In this document: in pieces, positions 19,292 to 39,020 of the stretch | Numbering within the stretch: the first letter of the stretch is position 1 | Layout of the letters: the number at the start of each line of letters is the position of its first letter | Assembly (NCBI GenBank): GCA_018335035.1 | Contig: JAGXKT010000010.1 | Span: forward strand, 28-64,027 | DNA: 64,000 nucleotides | Source of the DNA: Phycisphaerae bacterium | Lineage (GTDB): Bacteria > Planctomycetota > Phycisphaerae > SM23-33 | Reading direction: 5' to 3' | Translations under genes and position numbers: made by a program | Notes under the pieces: generated by a model | What the model saw: only the letters and a program-made list of their open reading frames with translations | Database searches by the model: none | Told to the model about the DNA's origin: nothing

Positions 19292-19483
19292 ATGAATTAT
19301 AGGCCATGCGAACGACCCGGTCAAGCCCGTTGCCCTCCGCAGATCGGCCGGCGTGACGACGGCGTCCCGTCGCGCCAGCGGGCTTGCCATTGATCCGAAG
19401 CGGCCTTGGCGGTACCGTGCCTCGCCGGCAGCGTCTGGCCGATTCGGGCCGAGCGCACGAGCGACGATGGAAAGGACCCCTTC

Positions 19484-21454: not shown

Positions 21455-21645
21455 GCGACGCAGCGCCGACGCAAAACAGTGGCCCGCAACGAGGCGGGGG
21501 AGACCACGCTACGGGCCGACTCAACAGGTCGGGGGAAACCTGTCGAGCGCTCCAATTATAGCGCCCACAGCAAGTTGATGCCAGAAATAGGTGATAATCC
21601 TAAAAGGCCGAATTCCGGGCCACATATCCCCCTAAAGCGGCGTCT

Positions 21646-25934: not shown

Positions 25935-26975
25935 CTACGCGGAGGCCAGCATATCGCGCCCCGCGGCGATCACGTCGCGCGGGTCGATCAGTTCCATGCA
26001 CGTCCCGTGCCCGCAGCGGCGTTTGCGGCAGCCGCGGCAGGGCACATCGGCGACGATCGCCCGCCCCGAGCCGACCGGGCCGGTCTCGTCGACGCGCGTC
26101 GGACCAATCAGCACGACGGCGTCGGTCCCGACGGCCGGGGCGACGAACTTCGCGGCCGAGTCGCTGCACAGCACGCCGGCGGCCGCGGCGATCAGCGCGA
26201 CCATCTGCGGGATGCTCGTCTGCCCGGCCGCGTTGATCACGCCGGAAAGCCCGTCGGCGATCGCGCCGCAGAGGCGCTCGTCGCCGGGCGCCCCGAGCAA
26301 CACGAGCGGGGCGTTGTCGGTCAGCCCGGCCGCCACTGTGCGCCAGTGACGCACGGGATAGCGCTTGGATGGCCATCGCGTCGGCGGCACGGCCACCAGG
26401 AAGGCCTGATCGGCCAGCCCGCGCTCGCGGGCGAATCGTTCGGAAAATTCGGCCGCCGCATCGGGCACGTGCAGCGTCATGTCATCGCGGGAGGCCTCCA
26501 CGCCCAGCGCCGCGGCGAGGGCGATGTTGCGGTCCACGGTGTGCGGGGCCTCGGGACCGACCCGGTGCGTGTAGAACAGCCGCGCCCCTTCCCGGGCGTC
26601 GGCGAAACCCGCGCGGACGCCCGCGCGCGAGCGCCGGGCGAAGTAGCCGCTACGGAATAACCCCTGCAGGTCGAGGGCCCAGTCGAACTTGCCGGCACGG
26701 AGCGTGCGGATCAGCCGGCGCAGATCGCGTGCGGCGCTGAGCGACCGCCAGCAGCGTCCCAGGCGCTTGCGATGGAACAGGATGACCTCGTCCAGATCCG
26801 GGTCGCCGTCCAGAAGCGGCGCGAAGACGTCGCCGAGCAGCCAGGCGAGGTGCGCGTCGGGAAACGCCCGCCGCAGGCCGCGAAGAACCGGCAGCGCCGT
26901 GACGACGTCGCCCAACGAGCTGGGCTTGATAATCAGGACGCGCCCGGGGGGGACCGTTGGCGCCGAGGCCTTCAC
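25935..26975 (-). CDS. Glycosyltransferase family 9 (ADP-heptose:LPS heptosyltransferase-like)
   Basis: RVLIIKPSSLGDVVTALPV is the heptosyltransferase N-terminal block. Start re-set to GTG 26975, with a perfect GAGGAG 9 nt upstream and a GTGA overlap with the upstream kinase stop. The track start 27158 would give a 50-aa non-homologous leader and a 187-nt overlap. Confidence 0.7.
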   Translation of the reverse strand: MKASAPTVPPGRVLIIKPSSLGDVVTALPVLRGLRRAFPDAHLAWLLGDVFAPLLDGDPDLDEVILFHRKRLGRCWRSLSAARDLRRLIRTLRAGKFDWALDLQGLFRSGYFARRSRAGVRAGFADAREGARLFYTHRVGPEAPHTVDRNIALAAALGVEASRDDMTLHVPDAAAEFSERFARERGLADQAFLVAVPPTRWPSKRYPVRHWRTVAAGLTDNAPLVLLGAPGDERLCGAIADGLSGVINAAGQTSIPQMVALIAAAAGVLCSDSAAKFVAPAVGTDAVVLIGPTRVDETGPVGSGRAIVADVPCRGCRKRRCGHGTCMELIDPRDVIAAGRDMLASA

Positions 26976-28714
26976 GACGTGGGCCTCCTCAAAGCCCGCT
27001 GCCGCCGACGGCGCGAGCGAATCTGGCGGTTGAGCTTTCGTGCCGACCAGACCTCCAGCACGCGCCAGTAGGGTTTGAAGTTGATCCATCCGCAGCCCGG
27101 GCGGCGCAGGTAGCCCAGCAGCATCCGCAGTCGCCCGGCGTGGGTGACCACCGGGCACTTCAGCAGCGAGACGTTGAGGCGCATCAACCCCTGGAACCGC
27201 CGACGGACCGTCAACACGTGCGTCTGGCGCAGCCCGTCGAGGTCGACCAGGACGATCTGCGGCAGTTCACCCGCGCGCCAGTGAACGAGCATGTTCGGCG
27301 CCTTGAGATCGCGATGGGCGAAGCCGTGGTCGTGCAAGCCCTGCACGAGCCGCCCGAGCTGCCAGAGCACGGCCTGGGCGAGCTGGCGGCGCTGGCTGTG
27401 ATCGAGCTTGGCATCAGCCGCCCGCCCAAGATGCAACTCCAGAAAGCGGCTCAGTCGCGGCGCCTCGACGGCCTCGGTCAGGTAGATGGTATCCAGCAGG
27501 AACGGGCCCCGGCGGCGTTCCAGACCGGCCAGCGGGAAGGCCGTGGCGATGCGGCGCGTCAGCAGCATGTGCCCCAGGCGAAACGCCCGCACACCGCGTC
27601 CGCGACGGAAGCAGTCCAACAGCACCTTCCACGCCCGCTTGCGGTGCGAGCGCTTGACGTACACGTCCAGCTCACGCCCGCCGATGGTCAGCTTGCGGCG
27701 AACGACGCGGCTGGTGGCGCTATCCTTGACGACCTCGACGTCGCCGTCCATCAGCGCTTCCGGGTGCGCCAGCGCGTCGCGCCATGCATCGGGCGAAAAC
27801 TGCATATGCGCCGCGGCCGACTCGGCCGGCTTGCGCTTGGAGGCGAGCACGACGTGCCCGCGCCAGCCCCGCGGCAGCCGAACCCGCGCGAAATATCGGT
27901 TCGTCCGCGCGATCCGCCGGTCGCGGTGGGCGTACTGCCGGGCGGTGTGGCGCCGGGCGAGTTCCTCGATCAACATCTGCCAGCCACGGAGTTGGCCGGT
28001 CAGACCGGCCGCTCGCAGGTACGCGCGCAGGAAGCGCAGGCGATCGGTCCGTGTGGTGAAATCACGTCGGTCGTGGAGGAGCTGGGCGAGGTTGCTTGCC
28101 CGGGCGCGTCGGCCCCGGCTACGCCGAGTGCGGTGCAGGTCCATCACCACGAAGCTGACCTCACCGGCGTCGGATCGGCGGACCAGGAGATTGCCACAGT
28201 GCAGATCGCGATGCACAACGCCCAGGGCGTGCATGCGGGCGAGGGTCTCGGCGAGCGTGCGAATGGCCGAGCGTATCGGCCGGATGCCCGCGTCGCCCTT
28301 GGCGCGCACGCGGGCATGCCAGGCATCGGCGGGCTCGGCGTTGGTGACGGCCTCGCTGGCGACCCATTCGGTGTTGCCGGCCCGGCCGACGGCCAGAATG
28401 CGCGGCGCCGGCACGCCGCCCTGGCGCAACCGCCGCGCCAGACGCAACTCGCGCCGCGCGTCGGAAACGCCCAGACGCCGGCGCAGCCGACCCCACGCGG
28501 ACCGCGGGTGGAAGTGCTTGACGTACAGAAGCTGTCCATCGATCGCACCGCGCCACACGGTGCGCGAGGCGTTGTGCTTGACGCGCTCGAATGCGTCGTC
28601 CGGCCAGGCCAGACGCTCCACGGCACCGGCAAGTTGCCGCTCGGCGTCGGCGTCGGCGAACTCCACGCCGTCGGGCCGGCGCGGCGAGATGTCGGCGGGG
28701 TTGGTCGAGGTCAT
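26972..28714 (-). CDS. Tandem lipopolysaccharide kinase (Kdo/WaaP family) domains, 580 aa
   Basis: Two kinase cores: LLYVKHFHP...VVHRDLHCGNLLV and LDVYVKRSH...FAHRDLKAPNMLV. Confidence 0.7.
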   Translation of the reverse strand: MTSTNPADISPRRPDGVEFADADAERQLAGAVERLAWPDDAFERVKHNASRTVWRGAIDGQLLYVKHFHPRSAWGRLRRRLGVSDARRELRLARRLRQGGVPAPRILAVGRAGNTEWVASEAVTNAEPADAWHARVRAKGDAGIRPIRSAIRTLAETLARMHALGVVHRDLHCGNLLVRRSDAGEVSFVVMDLHRTRRSRGRRARASNLAQLLHDRRDFTTRTDRLRFLRAYLRAAGLTGQLRGWQMLIEELARRHTARQYAHRDRRIARTNRYFARVRLPRGWRGHVVLASKRKPAESAAAHMQFSPDAWRDALAHPEALMDGDVEVVKDSATSRVVRRKLTIGGRELDVYVKRSHRKRAWKVLLDCFRRGRGVRAFRLGHMLLTRRIATAFPLAGLERRRGPFLLDTIYLTEAVEAPRLSRFLELHLGRAADAKLDHSQRRQLAQAVLWQLGRLVQGLHDHGFAHRDLKAPNMLVHWRAGELPQIVLVDLDGLRQTHVLTVRRRFQGLMRLNVSLLKCPVVTHAGRLRMLLGYLRRPGCGWINFKPYWRVLEVWSARKLNRQIRSRRRRQRALRRPTS

Positions 28715-28762
28715 CGCGATGCCGGCGGTCCCGTCGGCGGGCGGATTATATCGCCCGAAGAA

Positions 28763-29833
28763 TCACGCGTTCAAGCCGCAGCGCACACCGGCGGCGGCCT
28801 CGTAGATCGCCTCCAGTGCGCGGCGACACCGCTCGGGAGCGTGCTCGCCCGCCACGGTCAGACCTTCAGCGACGAGGGCTTTACGACGTGCGCTGTTCTC
28901 GACAAGTTCCAGAACCGCCGAGGCGTAATCGCGCGGCATGCGGCGGCGGACCAGCAGCGCCGCCCGGCCGTCGTCGGTCAGTTCGCAGACATCGCGCGTC
29001 CGGCAGGCCGTGACGGCAACGCCGGATGCCAGCGCCCTGACCAGTGCGGCCGTGCCGTTGTCCCGCTCGGCGAAGAACGTCGCCACGTCCGCGGCCGCCA
29101 GTGCGTCGTCCAGCCCCACGCGCTCGCCGGGCAGAAACACCTCCTCGTCAAAACCCGTCGTGCCGGCGAAGAACCGGACGTGCCGGAACGCCGCCCCGCC
29201 GCCGGGCAGCAGCAGGCGCAGGCCCGGGCGAATGTGCCGGACGATCGCGTGGGCCCAGGAGGCGTACATGTGCCCGGCTGTGTGGGTCATCTCGCCCGGA
29301 GCGACCACCAGCGCTTCGTCGTCGGAGACACCAAGTTCGGCGCGGATGCGCCGGCGGCGTTCGGCGGTATCGTCCGGCACTCGCGCGGGCGCGGGCAATA
29401 CGTGGATGCGATCGTCAAAGCCCCCTGCTTCCAGCAGCGCCGCGCGGGCGGAGCGCGTCGGCACGGTCAGGTGCAGCCCGGCGAAGCCCGGAGCGTTCAA
29501 CGCGCGGCGGAGGTCGTGCCCGGTCGGCACGCACGGCAGGGACACCACGCCCGGGCGCACGGCGCCTCGGGCGGCCTCAGCCGCGGCCTCTGCCGCGCGG
29601 AGCGACCACGCGTGCACGATATCGGCCCGCCAAGCCACGGCGGTCAGCCGTCTGCCGCACAAGCTCGCCATCCCCAGCGGCACGTGTTCGCTGCGTGCGG
29701 GCAGATGCGCCGGCCACCACGCCGGCGGCGGGTCAACGGACACCATGTCATCGCCTTCGGCGACGAGCAGCTCGAGCTGCCACGCCGCGTCCCGCGAGAT
29801 CGTTCCATCGATGATGTGCAGCACACGCGTCAC
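28763..29833 (-). CDS. Glycosyltransferase family 1 (GT4-like, LPS-core type)
   Basis: Start trimmed to GTG 29833 (VTRVLHIIDG; alternative GTG at 29824). The upstream 194 codons of the track ORF are antisense to der. Start uncertain. Confidence 0.6.
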   Translation of the reverse strand: MTRVLHIIDGTISRDAAWQLELLVAEGDDMVSVDPPPAWWPAHLPARSEHVPLGMASLCGRRLTAVAWRADIVHAWSLRAAEAAAEAARGAVRPGVVSLPCVPTGHDLRRALNAPGFAGLHLTVPTRSARAALLEAGGFDDRIHVLPAPARVPDDTAERRRRIRAELGVSDDEALVVAPGEMTHTAGHMYASWAHAIVRHIRPGLRLLLPGGGAAFRHVRFFAGTTGFDEEVFLPGERVGLDDALAAADVATFFAERDNGTAALVRALASGVAVTACRTRDVCELTDDGRAALLVRRRMPRDYASAVLELVENSARRKALVAEGLTVAGEHAPERCRRALEAIYEAAAGVRCGLNA

Positions 29834-29914
29834 GGCGCGAATGATACGCCCCCGCCCGCGCGGGCACAACCGCCGGGTATTCCCTCGGAGGCCCCAGGAC
29901 AGTAGGATGCACCC

Positions 29915-31252
29915 ATGAGCTTGCCGATCGTCACCATCGTGGGCCGGCCCAACGTGGGCAAGAGTTCCCTGTTCAACCGCCTCGCGGGCCGGCGGATCGC
30001 GATTGTCGACCCCACGCCGGGCGTGACGCGCGATCGTGTGTCCTTTCCGCTGGCGCTCGATGACCGCGAGGACGGCCGCTACGCGGAGCTGGTGGACACC
30101 GGCGGCATGGGCATCGAGGACAGCGACGACCTGACAGCCGAGGTCGAGGACCAGATCGCCTATGCCCTCTCGGCCGCGTCGCTGATCGTGTTCGTCGTCG
30201 ACGCGCGCGAGGGCATCCTGCCGCTGGACCGCACCGTGGCGCGCCGTCTGCGGCGGCAGGACACGCCCGTGCTGCTTGTCGCCAACAAGGTCGATCACCC
30301 CGACCAGATCAGCGAACTGTACGAGATGTCGGAGCTGGGCTTTGGCGAGGCGCTGGGCGTTTCGGCCGCTCACGGACTCGGCGCCGACGACTTGCTTGAC
30401 GCTATCCGCTCGCACCTCGGCGACGCGGGCGAGCGGCCCGACGAGGCCGTCATGAAGCTCGCCGTCGTCGGCAAGCGCAACGCCGGCAAGAGCACGTTGA
30501 TTAACGCCCTAGCCGGCGGCCCGCGGGTGATCGTCTCCGAGACGCCCGGAACCACGCGCGACAGCGTGGACGTCACCGTCGAGAGCGACGACCAGCGCAT
30601 CACGCTGATCGACACGGCCGGCGTTCGCAAGAAGAAGAAGCTCGCCGGCGACGTCGAGTTCTACAGCTACAGCCGGGCCATGCAATCGATCCGCCGCGCC
30701 GACGTGGTGGCACTGATGATCGACGCGGCCGTTCCGGTCTCCCAAGTGGACAAGAAGCTCGCGGCAGAGATCGCCAAACAGGAACGTCCCGTGGCGTTCG
30801 TGGTCAACAAGTGGGACCTAGCCGGCCAGAGCGCCACCGGGGAGGACTATGCCGAGTACCTCGCCAAGACGTTTCCGTCGCTGTCGTTCGCACCCGTGTC
30901 GCTGACCCAAGCCGACGCCGGCGTCAACGTTCGCGAGACGATACACCTAACGCGCCAGCTCTACGACCAGGCGCGGACGCGCGTGGGCACCGGGCGGCTC
31001 AACGCGGCGCTGGAGGACATTCTTGCCCAGCGCGGGCCCAGCCACAAGCGCGGCACGCGCCCGCCGAAGCTCTACTACGCCGCGCAGGTCGCCACCGCCC
31101 CACCGACGATCGTCTGCTTCGTCAACGACGTCCGCAGCTTCGACGAGGGCTACCGGCGATTCCTGCTCAACCAGCTCCGAGAGCATCTGCCCTTCGCGGA
31201 AGTGCCCATTCGCCTGCTGTTCCGCCCCCGACGCAACGACGACGCCAGGTAA
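29915..31252 (+). CDS. der: Ribosome-biogenesis GTPase Der (EngA), two GTP-binding domains
   Basis: IVGRPNVGKSSLFNRL (G1 of domain 1) and VVGKRNAGKSTLINAL (G1 of domain 2). Confidence 0.9.
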   Translation: MSLPIVTIVGRPNVGKSSLFNRLAGRRIAIVDPTPGVTRDRVSFPLALDDREDGRYAELVDTGGMGIEDSDDLTAEVEDQIAYALSAASLIVFVVDAREGILPLDRTVARRLRRQDTPVLLVANKVDHPDQISELYEMSELGFGEALGVSAAHGLGADDLLDAIRSHLGDAGERPDEAVMKLAVVGKRNAGKSTLINALAGGPRVIVSETPGTTRDSVDVTVESDDQRITLIDTAGVRKKKKLAGDVEFYSYSRAMQSIRRADVVALMIDAAVPVSQVDKKLAAEIAKQERPVAFVVNKWDLAGQSATGEDYAEYLAKTFPSLSFAPVSLTQADAGVNVRETIHLTRQLYDQARTRVGTGRLNAALEDILAQRGPSHKRGTRPPKLYYAAQVATAPPTIVCFVNDVRSFDEGYRRFLLNQLREHLPFAEVPIRLLFRPRRNDDAR

Positions 31253-31442
31253 GTGCGGCGGGCCCCAGACGCTGGCGCGACTCGCACGAGGTCTTCGACG
31301 TCCGCCCCGTGTGGGGCATGGGACCATGCGGGTCTGCGACATCTCGCCCGCGTTGGTCCGCCGCCTTGTCCCACGCCGGTTCGGGCGATAGACTTGCTGC
31401 TGTCAGGAGTTCGCAGACGATTTCAACCCAAGGAGCCGCCGC

Positions 31443-32348
31443 ATGAGCTTGCTGGTCACCGGAAGCATCGGAATCGACACCGTCGAAGCGCCCACCGGCA
31501 CCACCGAAAACGCCCTGGGCGGATCGAGCGTCTACTTCGCCTACGCGGCGAGTTTCTTCACGCCCGTCCGCCTGGTCGGCGTCGTCGGCGACGACTGCCC
31601 GGACGGCTTCCTTCGCCCGCTCGAGCAGCGGGGCAACATCGACCTGGCCGGGCTGGAGGTCCGCACCGGCAGCAAAACCTTTCGCTGGCACGGACGCTAC
31701 CACGAGGACGTCAACGAGCGAGACACCATCGCCGTGGACCTGAACGTTCTGGAGGAAGCCGGGCCGACAATTCCCGACGCCTTCGGCGACAGCGAGTACG
31801 TCTTCCTGGCCAATACGCACCCCGCCCTGCAGCTGGAATTGCTCAGTCAGCTCACCGCCCCCAAGCTCGTCGTCGCTGACACCATGGACCTGTGGATCAA
31901 GACCGAGCACGACGCACTGAACGAGCTGCTTGGCAAGATCGACGGCTTCGTTCTCAACGACGGGGAGGCCAAGCTTCTGACTGAGAAGCACAACGTTGTC
32001 GATGCCGGGCTCGAAATCGCCAGAAGCGTCCGGGGCTTCGTCGTCGTCAAGAAGGGCGAGCACGGAAGCATCCTCTTCATGGACGACCGCGCCTGGCCCC
32101 TGCCGGGCTATCCCTCCTGCAAAGTCGTCGACCCGACCGGCGCGGGCGACACCTTCGCCGGGGCCATGATGGGACACCTCGCCGCGACGGACAAGACCGA
32201 CGCTGCGGCCGTGCGCTCGGCAATCGCCTACGGCGCCGTTACCGCCGGCATCGAGCTGGAGGACTTCTCGCTCAATCGCCTGCTGACCGTCAGCCGCGAT
32301 GAGATCGACGCGCGGCTGGATGAGTTTCGCGAAATCTCCCGGTTCTAG
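31443..32348 (+). CDS. PfkB-family carbohydrate kinase (ribokinase-like)
   Basis: DPTGAGDTFAGAMMGHL is the PfkB C-terminal signature. AAGGAG 8 nt upstream of the ATG. Confidence 0.75.
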   Translation: MSLLVTGSIGIDTVEAPTGTTENALGGSSVYFAYAASFFTPVRLVGVVGDDCPDGFLRPLEQRGNIDLAGLEVRTGSKTFRWHGRYHEDVNERDTIAVDLNVLEEAGPTIPDAFGDSEYVFLANTHPALQLELLSQLTAPKLVVADTMDLWIKTEHDALNELLGKIDGFVLNDGEAKLLTEKHNVVDAGLEIARSVRGFVVVKKGEHGSILFMDDRAWPLPGYPSCKVVDPTGAGDTFAGAMMGHLAATDKTDAAAVRSAIAYGAVTAGIELEDFSLNRLLTVSRDEIDARLDEFREISRF

Positions 32349-32355
32349 CGATGAC

Positions 32356-32919
32356 ATGCGGACTTTCCTGGCCCTGGACATTGACGCCGAAACCCGCAAA
32401 GCGCTGGCGTCGCTGCCGGGCAACGTGCCCGCTGCCGGCGCCAAGATCCGCTGGACCGAGCCGGAGAACCTGCACGTGACGCTGCACTTCCTCGGCGAGG
32501 TCGACGCCGAGCGGCTCACCGAGGTGTGCGAGACAGCCGTCGCCGGAGCCGGGGAGGTCGAACCGTTCGACTTCGCCGTCGAAGGCGCGCTGTGCGTCCC
32601 CTCGGGCGGACGCAAGCTGCGCATGATCTGGGCGGGCGTCGTCGAGCCGACCGGGCGCCTGGCCGCGCTGCACACGACGCTGGGGACCGCGCTGGAAGGA
32701 TTGGGCTTCCGTCAGGAGCGGCGGGCCTTTCGGCCGCACATCACCCTGGCACGCCTCAAGTATGCCAACCGTGTCGAGCCAATCCGCCGCGCCGTCGCCG
32801 GGTACAGCGAGACCCGATTCGGCACGCCGCGGGCCGACGCCGCGACGATCTACACCAGCGAGTTGACGCCGCGCGGGGCCGTCTACACGCCCGCAGCGCG
32901 GGTGCCGCTCGGGGTGTAA
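32356..32919 (+). CDS. thpR: RNA 2',3'-cyclic phosphodiesterase (2H family, ThpR/LigT)
   Basis: Two H-x-T-x motifs: HVTLHFLGE and HITLARL. Start set at the internal ATG MRTFLALDID. Confidence 0.75.
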   Translation: MRTFLALDIDAETRKALASLPGNVPAAGAKIRWTEPENLHVTLHFLGEVDAERLTEVCETAVAGAGEVEPFDFAVEGALCVPSGGRKLRMIWAGVVEPTGRLAALHTTLGTALEGLGFRQERRAFRPHITLARLKYANRVEPIRRAVAGYSETRFGTPRADAATIYTSELTPRGAVYTPAARVPLGV

Positions 32920-32971
32920 GCCCCCCGGACAAAGACGTAACCGCCTTTGAAATAGCTTTTTACGAGAAAAG

Positions 32972-32993
32972 TTGCCCGCCCGCGGGTTTTTTT
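32972..32993 (+). terminator. Putative intrinsic terminator after thpR: short GC stem (cccg-cccg-cggg) followed by T7
   Basis: gttgcccgcccgcggg + ttttttt. A 7-T run is conspicuous in ~70% GC DNA. An AAAA run upstream makes it potentially bidirectional. Confidence 0.4.
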
Positions 32994-33154
32994 CAGCCGG
33001 CGCCTTGCGGCGTGCGAACAAATTCCGTACATTAGGTGGCATCGTCATGGGGTGTGGCCCTCGCGGCAAGCGGCGCACTTGACCCGCCGCGGCGACCTCG
33101 GTGAAATGGCCACGGGACGATTCCAAGGCCGATCCGGATAGGAGAACCCAGACC

Positions 33155-34225
33155 ATGGCCAAATCAACAGCGACCAGCACGCCGGCGTCCGACACAGCCG
33201 GCGGGGACGACAAGCGCCACAAGGCCCTCAAGGCGGCCGTGGCGCAAATCGAGAAGAACTACGGCAAGGGCAGCATCATGCGCCTGGCCGACAGCGAGGT
33301 CGCCAACGTGCCGGGCATTGCCACCGGTGCGCTGTCGTTGGACATCGCCCTCGGCGGGCGGGGCATTCCCCGCGGGCGGATCTGCGAATTGTACGGGCCT
33401 GAGGGCTCGGGCAAAACGACGTTGGCGCTGCACGTGGTCGCCAACGCCCAGAAAGCCGGCGGCGTGGCGGCGTTCATCGACGCCGAGCACGGACTGGACC
33501 CGAGCTGGGCGCGGAAGCTCGGGGTCAACCTCGAGGACCTTCTGATCAGCCAACCGAGCACCGGCGAGGAGGCGCTGGAGATCTGCGAGATGCTCATCCG
33601 CTCCAACGCCGTGGACGTGATCGTCGTCGACTCGGTCGCGGCGTTGATCCCCAAGGCCGAGATCGAGGGCGAGATGGGTCAGCAGCAGGTGGGCCTCCAG
33701 GCCCGGTTGATGAGCCAGGCGATGCGCAAGCTCGTCGGCGCGATCGCCAAGTCGCGCACGAGCGTGATCTTCATCAACCAGATCCGCATGAAGATCGGCG
33801 TGATGTTCGGCAACCCGGAGACGACACCGGGCGGGCGGGCGCTGAAGTTCTACAGTTCCGTCCGCATCGACATCCGGCGGATCAGCAGCATCAAGGCCGG
33901 CGACGAGGTCGTCGGCAACCACGTCCGCGCCCGCGTGGTCAAGAACAAGGTCGCCCCGCCCTTCCGCCGCGCGGAGTTCGACATCCTCTTCAACCAGGGC
34001 ATCAGCGCCGAAGGCGACCTTCTGGACCTCGCCGTCGCCCACGACGTCGTCGCCAAGCAGGGCGCCTGGTTCAGCTACGGCGAAACGCGCCTCGGGCAAG
34101 GCCGGGCCAACGCCGCAAGCTTCCTGCGCGAGAACACCGACCTGCTGGAGGAGGTCAAGCAGGCCGTGCTCGACGCCGCCCTGCCCAAACCGCCCGCCGA
34201 TGACGAAGACGAAAGCGAGACGTAA
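33155..34225 (+). CDS. recA: Recombinase RecA
   Basis: [15 protein letters not shown] (Walker A) and canonical RecA blocks. AGGAGA 10 nt upstream of the ATG. The first 18 codons of the track ORF are removed. Confidence 0.95.
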
Positions 34226-34314
34226 GCGCTCCTTCCGCACGGGGCCGCAGGCCCGTCGCGTTGACATTGCACCGTCTTGGCTTCGGGCCTAGCATAGCGC
34301 GTCAGGAGACGCCC

Positions 34315-35595
34315 ATGGACTTGCAGGTCAACCCGTCGCCGCATCTGCATGGCGAGGTCGCGATCCCGCCGAACAAGAGCCATTCCTTCCGCGCCCTGCT
34401 GATGGCCGCCCTGGCCGAGGGGACCAGCCGGATTCACGGACCGGCCGTGTCCAACGACTGGATGCGCGGCGTCGAGGCGCTGGAGATGTTCGGCGCGACG
34501 ATCACGCCGCGCGCCGATCGCTACTGGGAGGTCGTCGGCACCGGCGGCGAGTTGACCACACCCGACGACGTGATCGACTGCGGCAACAGCGGGATCATCC
34601 TGCGGTTTTTCACCGCCCTGGCCGCCTGCTGCGGCGGCTACAGTGTCCTCAGCGGCGATGACTCCATCCGCCACATCCGCCCCTGCGGCGCGCTGCTGGG
34701 GGCCCTCAACGACCTCGGCGCCTGGGGCGTGTCCACCAAGGGCGACGGGCACGCGCCGGTCGTTGTCCGCGGGCCGCTCAAGGGCGGACGGACCGAGATC
34801 GATGGCAGCGACTCCCAACCGGTCTCGGCGCTGCTGATCGCCTCGTCCCTCGGCGACGCGCCGACGGAATTGACCGTCCGCAACCCCGGCGAGAAGCCCT
34901 GGGTCGGCGTCACGCTTGACTGGCTCGGCCGCTGCGGCGTCGATTACGCAAACGAGGACTTCCAGCGCTATCGCGTCCGCGGCAACAGCCGCTGGAGCGG
35001 CTTCGAGGCCGAGATCCCCCTGGACTGGTCGGCGGCGCTGTACCCGATCGTTGCGGCCGTTCTGACCGACAACAGCGAGCTGACGCTGCGAGGCATGGAC
35101 CTTAACGACTCGCAGGGGGACAAGGCGGTCGTGGATGTGCTGCGGCGGATGGGCGCCGACATCGCGGTCGACGAGCAGACCGTCACGGCGCGGTCCAGCG
35201 AACTGACCGGCTGCGAGATAGACTGCAACGACTTCATCGACCAGTTCATGCTGCTGGCCGTCGTCGGCGCCTGCGCCGCCGGCGAAACGCGCCTGGTCAA
35301 CGCCGAAATTTGCCGCCACAAAGAGTGCGACCGCATCACGGCGATGCGCCATATGCTCGAGCAGTTGGGCGCCGACGTCGAGGAAAGACCCGACGGACTG
35401 ACGGTCCGCCGAAGCACCCTGCGCGGCGCACGGATCGATAGCCGACGCGATCACCGCATGGTGATGACGGCCACCGTCGCCGGCCTGGTCGCCAGCGGGA
35501 CGACCGTCATCCAGGACATCGAGTGCGTCAAGAAGACCTTCCCGGAGTTCGTCAAGCAGATGCAGCACGTCGGAGCGGACCTCGAAACCGACTGA
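34315..35595 (+). CDS. aroA: 3-phosphoshikimate 1-carboxyvinyltransferase (EPSP synthase)
   Basis: NKSHSFRALLMAAL...IDCGNSGIILRFF...RPCGALLGAL are EPSPS blocks. AGGAGA 6 nt upstream of the ATG. The track start is TTG. Confidence 0.9.
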   Translation: MDLQVNPSPHLHGEVAIPPNKSHSFRALLMAALAEGTSRIHGPAVSNDWMRGVEALEMFGATITPRADRYWEVVGTGGELTTPDDVIDCGNSGIILRFFTALAACCGGYSVLSGDDSIRHIRPCGALLGALNDLGAWGVSTKGDGHAPVVVRGPLKGGRTEIDGSDSQPVSALLIASSLGDAPTELTVRNPGEKPWVGVTLDWLGRCGVDYANEDFQRYRVRGNSRWSGFEAEIPLDWSAALYPIVAAVLTDNSELTLRGMDLNDSQGDKAVVDVLRRMGADIAVDEQTVTARSSELTGCEIDCNDFIDQFMLLAVVGACAAGETRLVNAEICRHKECDRITAMRHMLEQLGADVEERPDGLTVRRSTLRGARIDSRRDHRMVMTATVAGLVASGTTVIQDIECVKKTFPEFVKQMQHVGADLETD

Positions 35596-35629
35596 CGCCG
35601 CCGGCGCGCCAACGAAAGCTGCTGGCGCC

Positions 35630-35661
35630 GGTTCCTTGCGGCCGCACGCGGCCGTATAATA
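35630..35661 (+). promoter_or_regulatory. Possible promoter for aroK-aroC: perfect TATAAT at 35655-35660, preceded by a CGGCCG-cac-gCGGCCG hairpin. -35 element weak
   Basis: A perfect TATAAT hexamer is rare in this GC-rich DNA. Found in the 130-bp aroA/aroK-aroC gap. Confidence 0.2.
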
Positions 35662-35725
35662 CCGCCCGAACCCCCCAACCCGCCGGGCGACGGCTCGGCA
35701 CGACCACGCACACGGCGATACGCAC

Positions 35726-37321
35726 ATGAAGATCGTTCTGACGGGACCGAAGGGATCAGGCAAGAGCACCGTCGGCCGCATTCTCGCCGAGCAGCTCGGC
35801 ATTGCTCACGTCGATACGGACGAGTTGCTGACCGCCGCCTGCGAGGCCGAGACGGGCCGGCGCCTGACCTGTCGCGAGATCTGCCGCGAAGAAGGCGAGC
35901 CGGCCTTTCGCGCCCGGGAGGCCCGTGCCGTAGCCCAGGCCGCCGAGCGGCGCTACTGCATCGTCTCGACAGGTGGCTCGTCCCTGCTCGACCCGGATAA
36001 CCGCCGACGCCTGCGCCACGAGGCAGTGCTGGTCTATCTCCGGCTCGACGCCGAGGCGTGTTGGCAGCGCGTCTCTGCCGACGGTGTGCCGGCGTTCCTC
36101 ACGAGCGACCAGCCGAAGCGCGAGTTCGTCGACCGCGTCGCCCGCCTGGACGACGTCATCACCCCCTACGCCGACGCCGTCGTCGCCGTAGAGGCCGATG
36201 AGCCGCCCGAGCAGGTCGCCCGGCGCGTCCGCGAGCGCGTCGAGGAGGAGCTGACGCTCGCGGCCGGGCGCTTCAGCACGCTCGGGTTGGTTCTGCAGGT
36301 CCACACGTTCGGCGAGAGCCACGGTCCGGCCATCGGGGCAGTCCTCGACGGCGTGCCGCCCGGCGTGCCCCTCAGCGAGGCGGATATTCAGACCGACCTC
36401 GACCGCCGCCGCCCCGGTCAGAGCGCGGTCTCGACACCGCGGTCCGAGGCGGACCGGGTGCGGATCCTCTCGGGCGTGCTCGAGGGGGCGACCACCGGCG
36501 CGCCGATCGCGATGGTCATCGAGAACACACGACAGCGCTCTGGGGACTACGAGGCCCTGCGCGATGTGTTCCGCCCCGGGCACGCGGACTTCACGTTCTG
36601 GGCGAAGTACGGCCGGCGGGACCACCGCGGCGGCGGGCGCAGCAGCGGGCGCGAGACGGCCGCTCGCGTCGCGGGCGGGGCGGTGGCCAAGAAGATCCTC
36701 GCCGAGCGCGGCATCGAGATTCGCGCCCACGCCGTCGAGATCGGCGGCGTCCGCGCCAAGACCGTCGACTATGACGTTGTCGAGCAGAATCCCGTGCGTT
36801 GCGCGGACGCGCAAGCGGCCGAGGCGATGGAGGCCGCCATCCGCGACGCACGCGAGGCCGGCGACTCAGTCGGCGGAGTCATCGAGGTCGAAATCGCCGG
36901 CGTCCCTGCCGGTCTGGGGGACCCGGTCTTCGCCAAGCTCGACGCCCGCCTGGGCGCCGCGTTGCTGTCGGTCGGCGCGGTCAAGGGCGTGGAGTTCGGC
37001 GCCGGCTTCGCCGCGGCGCGGCAGCGCGGCAGCGAGCACAACGACCCGATGTGCGACGGGCGCTTCGTCACCAACCGCGCCGGCGGCATCGCCGGCGGCA
37101 TCAGCACCGGCGAGCCCATCGTGGTCCGCGTGGCGGTCAAGCCGACGGCCTCGATCTCCCGACCGCAGCAGACCTGCGACGTGCACGGCCGCAACCGCGA
37201 AATCGAAATCCAAGGCCGCCACGATCCCTGCATCGTGCCGCGCGCCGTGCCTGTGATGGAGGCAATGGCCGCGATGGTCGTGCTCGACAGCTTGTTGATC
37301 CAGCAGCGCCTTGGCGGCTAA
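35726..37321 (+). CDS. Bifunctional shikimate kinase (N-terminal ~175 aa) / chorismate synthase (C-terminal) fusion protein
   Basis: N-terminus: MKIVLTGPKGSGKSTVGRILAEQLG (AroK P-loop). C-terminus: RFSTLGLVLQVHTFGESHGPAIGAVLDGVPPG...GRSSGRETAARVAGGAVAKK (AroC). One continuous 531-aa ORF. Confidence 0.85.
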   Translation: MKIVLTGPKGSGKSTVGRILAEQLGIAHVDTDELLTAACEAETGRRLTCREICREEGEPAFRAREARAVAQAAERRYCIVSTGGSSLLDPDNRRRLRHEAVLVYLRLDAEACWQRVSADGVPAFLTSDQPKREFVDRVARLDDVITPYADAVVAVEADEPPEQVARRVRERVEEELTLAAGRFSTLGLVLQVHTFGESHGPAIGAVLDGVPPGVPLSEADIQTDLDRRRPGQSAVSTPRSEADRVRILSGVLEGATTGAPIAMVIENTRQRSGDYEALRDVFRPGHADFTFWAKYGRRDHRGGGRSSGRETAARVAGGAVAKKILAERGIEIRAHAVEIGGVRAKTVDYDVVEQNPVRCADAQAAEAMEAAIRDAREAGDSVGGVIEVEIAGVPAGLGDPVFAKLDARLGAALLSVGAVKGVEFGAGFAAARQRGSEHNDPMCDGRFVTNRAGGIAGGISTGEPIVVRVAVKPTASISRPQQTCDVHGRNREIEIQGRHDPCIVPRAVPVMEAMAAMVVLDSLLIQQRLGG

Positions 37322-37507
37322 GCGGCGTCGCCGGCCCTGCGTCAATGCGGCCGGGCCCGCGACAAGGGCCCGTATACGAAGTAGGCGGCACCGAACGCTG
37401 AGCTGAAACGGCACGCGGCGGTGGGCGCATCTCGCGCTGGCCGCCGCGGACGTGTTACGCTAGCATTTCACGCCTGCCCCGGGCTCTACACGCAGAAAGC
37501 TTCCAAC

Positions 37508-37936
37508 ATGAGAATCGCCATTGCATCCGACCACGCCGGGTTCGACTACAAGGAGCGAATTAAGCGGCATCTCAGCGCGGCCGGGCATGAGGTCACGGAC
37601 TTCGGCACGGACTCCGACGCGGCGTGCGATTACCCGAAATTCATCCGACCGGCCGCGGAGGCGGTGGCGCGCGGCGACTGCGAGCGCGGCATCGTCCTCG
37701 GCGGCTCGGGCAACGGCGAGGCCATCGTCGCCAATCGCATTCCCGGCCTCCGTTGCGGGGTCTGCTGGGACGCGGAATCGGCCCGTCTGGCCCGGCGGCA
37801 CAATGACGCCAACGTGATCTCCTTCGGCCAGCGGATGATCGCTTTCGAGACCGCCCTGCAGATCGTGGACATCTTCCTCTCCGAGCCCTTCGACGCCGGC
37901 CGACACGCCCGCCGCATCGCGCAGATTGATACGTAA
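37508..37936 (+). CDS. rpiB: Ribose-5-phosphate isomerase B (RpiB/LacA/LacB family)
   Basis: MRIAIASDHAGF...GIVLGGSGNGEAIVANR. Start set at the internal ATG. Confidence 0.8.
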   Translation: MRIAIASDHAGFDYKERIKRHLSAAGHEVTDFGTDSDAACDYPKFIRPAAEAVARGDCERGIVLGGSGNGEAIVANRIPGLRCGVCWDAESARLARRHNDANVISFGQRMIAFETALQIVDIFLSEPFDAGRHARRIAQIDT

Positions 37937-37966
37937 GGAGCCGCAGGGATGCAGCAGACGGGGCCC

Positions 37967-38874
37967 TCAGCGGTACTGAACGAGTATCTTCAGCGGCCGC
38001 AGCAGATTCCCCTCCGTGAGCTTGGCCACGCCGACCAGGGCGCCGTCGACGTCTACCACGAGAACCTCCGCGTCGCCCGGGACGTCGCCCGCGCCAGTGT
38101 CCGCGGGCATCGCCACGCGCTGCCCCATCGCCAGGCGCCGTACCTGTTCGGCATCCGCCGCAAAGCGCGGCAGGTCCGCTGCCGCTTCCAGCGGATCGCG
38201 CAGGTCGCGGGGCAGGTCCAGCGCGTCCGGCGCAGCGGCGTCGTCGGCCGTGAATGCGCCGACGGCAGTCCGGCGCAGTCGTGAGCAGTACCCACCGGTT
38301 GCCAGGGCCGCGCCGATGTCCCGCGCCAGCGCGCGGACGTACGTGCCCGTCCCGCAGCGTACGTCGATCTCCAGCTCCGGCCAGTCGTAGCGAATCACGT
38401 CGATTCCGTGGATCGTCACGCGTCGCGGCTGCAGCGGCGGCGCCTTGCCCCGACGCGCCAGGCGGTAGGCGCGGTGCCCGTCGACGTGCACGGCCGAGTG
38501 GACCGGCGGCGCCTGGTCGATCGCGCCGACGAACCGCCCCACGGTCTGACGTACGGCGTGGGCACCAGGCGGCGTCGTGTCGGTTCGGGCGACAATGTCG
38601 CCTTCCGGATCGTCCGTCGTGCTCGTCGCTGCGAGGCGTACGACGGCGCGGTATCGCTTCGGCGCGCGCTGGACGTACTCGGCCAGGCGGGTCGCCGGGC
38701 CCACGCACAGCACGAGCACACCCGAAGCAAACGGGTCAAGCGTGCCGGCGTGCCCGACGCGCGTGCCCCGCGGCAGGCGACGGCGGACGCCGGCGACGAT
38801 GTCGTGGCTCGTGGGCCCCGGCGGCTTGTCCACGTTCAGCAGCCCGAACAGCAGCGGTCGTCGCATCTGTGCCA
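37967..38874 (-). CDS. truB: tRNA pseudouridine(55) synthase
   Basis: LLNVDKPPGPTSHDIV and GHAGTLDPFASGVLVL (catalytic Asp). Start trimmed to MAQMRRP, 302 aa. Confidence 0.85.
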
Positions 38875-39020
38875 TGGGCCTACTGTACCGCCGCGTCGCC
38901 GGCCGTACCATGGCAGCCGCATGCCCGTTCGACCCCACGCGACTCATGCCCGCCGCCCGAAAACGCCGATAGGTCCGGTGGACAAGAACGCCCAATCGCA
39001 GCCGTAAGGAAAGACACCCC

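Follow-up and report, generated by a model that had tools for sequence, protein, structure and literature searches.

In a 64,000-nt stretch of Phycisphaerae bacterium DNA (GCA_018335035.1, contig JAGXKT010000010.1, positions 28 to 64,027; hereafter the window), a single open reading frame (ORF) joins an N-terminal domain of the shikimate kinase (SK) family to a complete C-terminal chorismate synthase (CS). Judging from sequence comparisons, we consider it likely, with a probability of roughly 0.7, that the encoded protein is a working bifunctional SK/CS with a rearranged kinase active site, in which R50 would take the place of the arginine of the LID and K9 that of a second arginine, R136 of Mycobacterium tuberculosis SK (MtSK). 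We favor this reading because the ATP- and shikimate-binding core of the kinase is kept, the gene is under purifying selection, and the same type of kinase domain occurs in three arrangements linked to the shikimate pathway. By textbook chemistry, SK (step 5) adds the 3-phosphate to shikimate, AroA (step 6) makes 5-enolpyruvylshikimate-3-phosphate (EPSP), and CS (step 7) removes that phosphate to give chorismate; the window protein would carry out steps 5 and 7, with almost no linker between the two domains.

The ORF (35726-37321, + strand) starts with ATG and encodes 531 amino acids (aa) followed by a stop codon. As claimed in a preliminary description of this DNA, it holds both an AroK P-loop domain and an entire AroC, which we confirmed from the ORF list and with Pfam: SKI (PF01202) covers aa 10-172 (35753-36241; 103.5 bits against a cut-off of 22.1) and Chorismate_synt (PF01264) covers aa 190-524 (36293-37297; 474 bits against 27), the latter over profile positions 1-327 of 327. 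An identical protein in NCBI (P0001) is named 'MAG: chorismate synthase [Phycisphaerae bacterium]' (MAG, metagenome-assembled genome). In a protein search at the 90% identity level, both domains were present in all 120 best clusters, whose members measure 504-585 aa and match the query at 52-80% identity along essentially its full length. In an AlphaFold2 (AF2) model of the fusion, the C-terminal helix of the kinase (161-183) leads almost directly into a normal CS N-terminus, and within the junction (aa 173-189, 36242-36292) the predicted local distance difference test score (pLDDT) drops below 50 at residues 182-184 only. The start of the fused CS, F-S-T-L-G, corresponds to N-S-F-G in a Parachlamydia AroC. 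A terminator-like hairpin with a T-rich tail was also called inside the ORF at the domain junction (aa ~180-187; 36264-36285, + strand); it is probably a chance match, the scan of the window having returned six such sites against 3.7 expected.

The synthase half is, by sequence and modeled fold, an ordinary chorismate synthase, predicted to convert EPSP to chorismate with flavin mononucleotide (FMN) as cofactor. It scores well above the NCBIfam equivalog cut-offs (NF003793, 481 bits against 321; TIGR00033, 449 bits against 212), and its modeled fold matches 1um0 (TMt 0.85, E = 3e-34). The three PROSITE signature motifs of the enzyme, G-E-S-H-G..., G-R-S-S-G-R-E-T... and R-H-D-P-C..., are found at aa 196-211, 304-320 and 498-514.

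The kinase half also has the expected fold, matching MtSK (1u8a, 2iyq) and Escherichia coli AroK (1kag) with TMt values of 0.83-0.85, with pLDDT at ~90 or more over aa 1-170 of the AF2 model. For a comparison of individual residues, the kinase domains of all 120 fusions were aligned with M. tuberculosis AroK, E. coli AroK and Erwinia SK. The MtSK sequence used is an exact match to PDB 1l4u, and the E. coli and Erwinia residues were checked where the alignment covers them. The Walker A P-loop, G7-P-K9-G-S-G-K13-S-T15 (35744-35770), has G7, G12, K13 and S14 all in place, and its lysine (MtSK K15, window K13) is kept in 119 of 120 fusions, the remaining row being gapped. The catalytic aspartate (MtSK D34, window D32), the glycine pair G79-G80 (window G83-G84) and R110 (window R115) are each found in 120/120 fusions and R58 (window R62) in 113/120, while MtSK G81 is replaced by S85 and is mostly Ser across the fusions.

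Several observations weigh against an active kinase, and among them are points in favor of a rival reading, in which the fusion is real and its N-terminal domain is a pseudo-enzyme, one that regulates or stabilizes CS by binding ATP or shikimate, or an enzyme with another substrate, with step 5 left to a different kinase encoded elsewhere in the genome. The LID arginine (MtSK R117) is P122 in the window protein, within the motif G120-V-P122-A-F-L125 (36083-36100) as against the canonical x-x-R-P-L-L, and the position is Pro in 113 of the 120 fusions and Arg in none (fusion motif, G-[LIV]-P-[PA]-[WFY]-L). The carboxylate-binding R136 of MtSK is replaced by L141, with R140 adjacent, and is Arg in only 49/120 fusions. 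In Helicobacter pylori SK (HpSK), where R116 corresponds to MtSK R117 and R132 to R136, activity was undetectable for the R116A, R116K and R132K mutants, and R132A kept 5% (PMC3306394). The domain falls below every NCBIfam SK equivalog cut-off (best, NF010552, 92.3 bits against 186), and we found no solved structure with a Pro in the LID and, in the literature, no published assay of such a Pro-LID kinase. A canonical, stand-alone SK with the LID arginine is present in another Phycisphaerae lineage, in a Tepidisphaeraceae MAG (GCA_049679725.1; L094:3609-4127, P0459), adjoining pyrH and frr, so the class is not uniformly of the fused type. Redundancy does occur: in an Armatimonadota MAG (L084, GCA_046483205.1), the fusion is followed by another CS that stands alone. 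Finally, the family has members acting on other substrates, and the homoserine kinase model hom_kin_desulfo (NF040667) does match, at 70 bits; this is far under its cut-off of 197, and a homoserine kinase of the Desulfovibrio type was rejected on that score. The preliminary description was right that an SK domain is present, but it passed over the atypical nature of this kinase, which lies below the equivalog cut-offs and lacks the LID arginine.

The proline in the LID is shared by many other proteins. A search with the kinase domain alone against 1.84 billion representatives returned 3,399 matches at E <= 1e-10, and among the 146 nearest scorable 50%-identity cluster representatives the LID position is Pro in 116 and Arg in 21. 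By these alignments, the kinase half belongs to a large, uncharacterized 'Pro-LID' clade of the SK family. Pro-LID proteins mostly stand alone, with lengths of 165-195 aa, the Parachlamydia kinase being a named example, and none of those tested, stand-alone ones included, reached an NCBIfam SK cut-off. The clade is also marked by an insertion of six residues within the shikimate-binding subdomain that carries a conserved arginine, R50 in the T48-C49-R50-E51-I52 motif of the window protein (35867-35881). This arginine is found in 107 of the 116 Pro-LID representatives versus 6 of the 21 with Arg in the LID, and in 104/120 fusions, making R50 a candidate substitute for the LID arginine. The third P-loop position, K9 in the window protein, is Lys in 117/120 fusions. 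All 31 Pro-LID representatives without R136 have Lys or Arg there and none is without both, an association (Fisher p = 1e-9) that is uncorrected for shared ancestry. In Erwinia SK the equivalent residue is Arg11, which contacts the carboxylate of shikimate. In the fused sub-clade, K9 may stand in for the lost carboxylate-binding R136.

Three independent arrangements link the Pro-LID domain to the shikimate pathway: an aroA-aroK-aroC operon, an AroK-AroB fusion and the AroK-AroC fusion. The second of these is represented by P0173 (548 aa, from a Logan contig), in which Pfam finds SKI, DHQ_synthase and DHQS_C; since its kinase domain is of the Pro-LID type, this atypical kinase occurs in AroK-AroB fusions as well. 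That the domain recurs in such settings argues against a pseudo-enzyme, as does the pattern of conservation: the ATP-binding residues, the catalytic aspartate, R58 and G79/G80 show little or no variation despite deep divergence, whereas their loss would be expected in a decayed enzyme. The kinase half is under purifying selection, with a ratio of nonsynonymous to synonymous substitution rates (dN/dS) of about 0.25 (0.28 against L085, the closest relative, whose fusion is 80% identical, and 0.23 against L001, another Phycisphaerae locus); the corresponding values for the CS half are 0.22 and 0.16. In addition, neither the 64-kb window nor any of the fusion-bearing loci examined showed a second SK-like gene. 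We therefore regard a domain without SK activity as unlikely, at rather less than one chance in four, and prefer a bifunctional protein with a working, rearranged kinase. To the broader proposal we give a little less than even odds, namely that the Pro-LID proteins, chlamydial-type enzymes among them, are true shikimate kinases that dispense with the LID arginine, that the arginine has moved to the T-C-R-E-I motif, that K9 replaces R136 in the fused sub-clade, and that the fusion has two activities.

The single ORF itself is not in serious doubt. The third-position G+C content (GC3) of a single frame remains within 0.80-0.98 through the SK-CS junction, with no frame break. The junction (EEL...G-R-F-S-T-L-G) aligns gaplessly with those of the 119 other two-domain clusters, a match that on the alignment is well beyond chance expectation, and its residues E175, T185 and G187 vary little or not at all among the 120 fusions. 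In L085, aa 173-189 are the same as in the window protein (dN = 0). That an assembly or sequencing error removed a stop codon or shifted the frame and so joined two ordinary genes is extremely improbable given this continuity, the amino-acid identity of the L085 junction, and an architecture and conserved junction common to all 120 best clusters, from independent NCBI, JGI, ENA and Logan assemblies; nothing speaks for such an error beyond its prior possibility and one Spirochaetaceae MAG (L052) in which the parts lie in different frames. A frameshift at the junction, for which the preliminary description had proposed a check, was thus not seen in this analysis, and sequencing error is excluded. 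In the Spirochaetaceae locus (L052:235-1855), a Pro-LID kinase ORF stops and an overlapping CS follows in the +1 frame with no obvious ATG, GTG or TTG start; this is a fusion broken by a frameshift or else a distinct gene that starts in an unusual way.

The proposed search for other AroK-AroC fusions was productive, with 120/120 best clusters fused and named members from Phycisphaerae, Sedimentisphaerales, other Planctomycetota, Hydrogenedentes and Armatimonadota. A full-length-alignment scan of genome contigs was dominated by ordinary chorismate synthases, because its search patterns came out of the CS half, and it is no taxon census; among the matches listed there were at least two further clear fusions (L001, Phycisphaerae; L002, Planctomycetaceae). 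The preliminary description had not recognized the fusion as a standard arrangement. For the lineage it is in fact ordinary, because all 120 best clusters have the same architecture, and, on these sequences, Phycisphaerae and related lineages usually carry the gene in its fused form. In the literature, a full-text search retrieved no natural AroK-AroC fusion, the only 'aroK-aroC' match being an E. coli engineering paper, and NCBIfam returned no model for it. The architecture is plainly visible in sequence databases though undescribed in the literature searched.

Immediately upstream of the fusion lies aroA, encoding EPSP synthase (34315-35595, + strand; ATG start, 426 aa), identified by PF00275 (314.5 bits) and the aroA equivalog TIGR01356 (386 bits; cut-off, 287). 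Steps 6, 5 and 7 are thus contiguous, as had been claimed, with a 130-nt gap between the two genes. The order in the window, on one strand, is der, pfkB, thpR, recA, aroA, fusion and rpiB (ribose-5-phosphate isomerase B; 37508-37936, + strand; PF02502, 189 bits), followed by truB on the opposite strand. The order pfkB-thpR-recA-aroA-fusion is the same in L085, where the AroA homolog is also 426 aa. Adjacency is not universal: aroA adjoins the fusion in four of eight distinct fusion loci (the window, L085, L082 and L084). It lies directly upstream in L084, and in L082, a Hydrogenedentes MAG, one small ORF intervenes (136 aa, L082:896-1306, no Pfam match). No aroA is found nearby in L081, L087/L088, L001 or L002. 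The stand-alone CS of L084 (L084:3648-4787; 379 aa, 43% identical to the window CS half) sits directly downstream of the aroA-fusion pair, so that this organism has two adjacent CS copies. In L081, on an 862-kb contig, ribF (FAD synthetase/riboflavin kinase; L081:11653-12612) starts 54 nt past the fusion; the ribF product makes FMN, the chorismate synthase cofactor.

An unfused counterpart of the gene order is seen in a Parachlamydia MAG (L089), which has genes for 3-deoxy-D-arabino-heptulosonate-7-phosphate synthase, AroA, a 173-aa Pro-LID kinase and AroC. The stop codon of the kinase gene and the start codon of aroC overlap in TAATG, and the aroA and kinase genes overlap in L090 and L093. 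As in the window, the kinase is of the Pro-LID type (G-L-P-A-Y-L, L-T-C-R-E-I) and the genes are in the same order, here translationally coupled; in contrast to the window protein, kinase and synthase are two separate polypeptides, and the kinase has retained R136 and GGG, with Pro where the fusion has its P-loop Lys. Chlamydia trachomatis has the same order, aroA-aroL-aroC. The Parachlamydia arrangement is plausible as the precursor type of the fusion, and we infer that the most likely origin of the fusion is a lost stop codon in a translationally coupled aroK-aroC pair, within an aroA-aroK-aroC operon, after which it would have been inherited as one clade. In a neighbor-joining tree, 121 fused CS domains formed one clade excluding 79 stand-alone ones; this is suggestive only, since the fusions analyzed were the best hits to the query and the sample is biased to its relatives. 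The same gene order is also seen in the archaeon Methanoculleus methanifontis (L069:4478-8393), where a 477-aa fusion of a canonical Arg-LID SK and shikimate dehydrogenase lies between aroA and aroC.

We also examined whether the fusion has its own promoter, as had been suggested from a perfect TATAAT in the gap. The hexamer is present (35655-35660, + strand); it precedes the ATG by 65 nt and lies in a spacer (35596-35725, + strand) whose 130 nt are long enough for a promoter. The hexamer is rare in this 67% G+C window of a 68% G+C genome, with four copies against 1.2 expected, although 3 of 100 shuffles of the window also reached four. The other three are all on the - strand (19296-19301, 21555-21560 and 28745-28750). 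The candidate -10 box has no -35-like hexamer at 16-18 nt and no TG extension, and a sigma-70 scan of 31000-39000 returned 0 sites. Pairwise alignment places the hexamer in an ~85-nt insertion (roughly 35598-35690) that is missing from L085, where the aroA-fusion gap is 46 nt and contains no TATAAT. In the gap itself, the scan for terminator-like sites had no hit, and all genes from der to rpiB are co-directional. An independent promoter at this hexamer is possible but unsupported, and we consider it doubtful, at perhaps one chance in four.

The start of the TATAAT overlaps an 8-bp GC-rich hairpin, TGCGGCCG-CACG-CGGCCGTA (35637-35656, + strand), in the RNAfold minimum-free-energy structure. 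The fold of the spacer RNA is not unusual (z = -0.83), an Rfam search of 33000-38500 gave nothing relevant and left the spacer without a match, and the hairpin/TATAAT segment has no second copy within the window; these three results lend no support to a riboswitch, an attenuator or a repeat element there. Elsewhere in the window, a 982-aa ORF (26957-29905, + strand) without a Pfam match at E <= 1e-5 lies in the most G+C-rich part (0.71-0.72), a region that also has long ORFs on the opposite strand.

Fused shikimate-pathway enzymes are well known, among them AroK-AroB, AroD-AroE and AROM. The AroK-AroB proteins (NF010627, NF010556) resemble the window protein in being bacterial, ~540 aa long, and N-terminally an SK fused to another enzyme of the pathway, and both Arg-LID (P0238) and Pro-LID (P0173) versions occur. 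Their partner is 3-dehydroquinate (DHQ) synthase of step 2, whereas that of the window fusion is CS of step 7; Pfam finds no DHQ synthase domain in the window fusion, and the AroK-AroB models score 40-64 bits against cut-offs of 560-565. The pentafunctional AROM polypeptide (PDB 6hqv), which occurs in fungi and protists and was only a weak hit to a Pro-LID kinase, is likewise a multi-enzyme chain with an SK domain; it joins steps 2-6 and leaves CS separate, in contrast to the window fusion, which joins steps 5 and 7 and leaves step 6 to a separate upstream gene. With canonical SKs (1l4u/2iyq, 1kag, HpSK) the window kinase shares the fold, Walker A and the equivalents of D34, R58, G79-G80 and R110, and it differs from them in having Pro for R117, Leu for R136 (R140 adjacent) and Ser for G81, a P-loop Lys, and the extra 6-residue insertion with its conserved Cys-Arg.

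The fusion joins step 5 of the pathway to step 7 and skips step 6. It would set a 1:1 ratio of kinase and synthase activities and would put kinase domains on the chorismate synthase oligomer; channeling of substrate through AroA is only a speculation. The NCBI label 'chorismate synthase' hides the kinase, and metabolic reconstructions from MAGs of Phycisphaerae and related lineages may wrongly call SK missing. The Parachlamydia operon suggests a plausible route by which genes that overlap and are translationally coupled could become a single gene. The atypical kinase clade may be of more interest than the fusion itself. The LID arginine, which is essential in H. pylori SK, has been used in inhibitor design. 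If the kinase is active, this residue would be dispensable in a whole clade, and, as that clade includes a Parachlamydia MAG, the finding would bear on inhibitor design as well as on the rules by which shikimate kinases are annotated.

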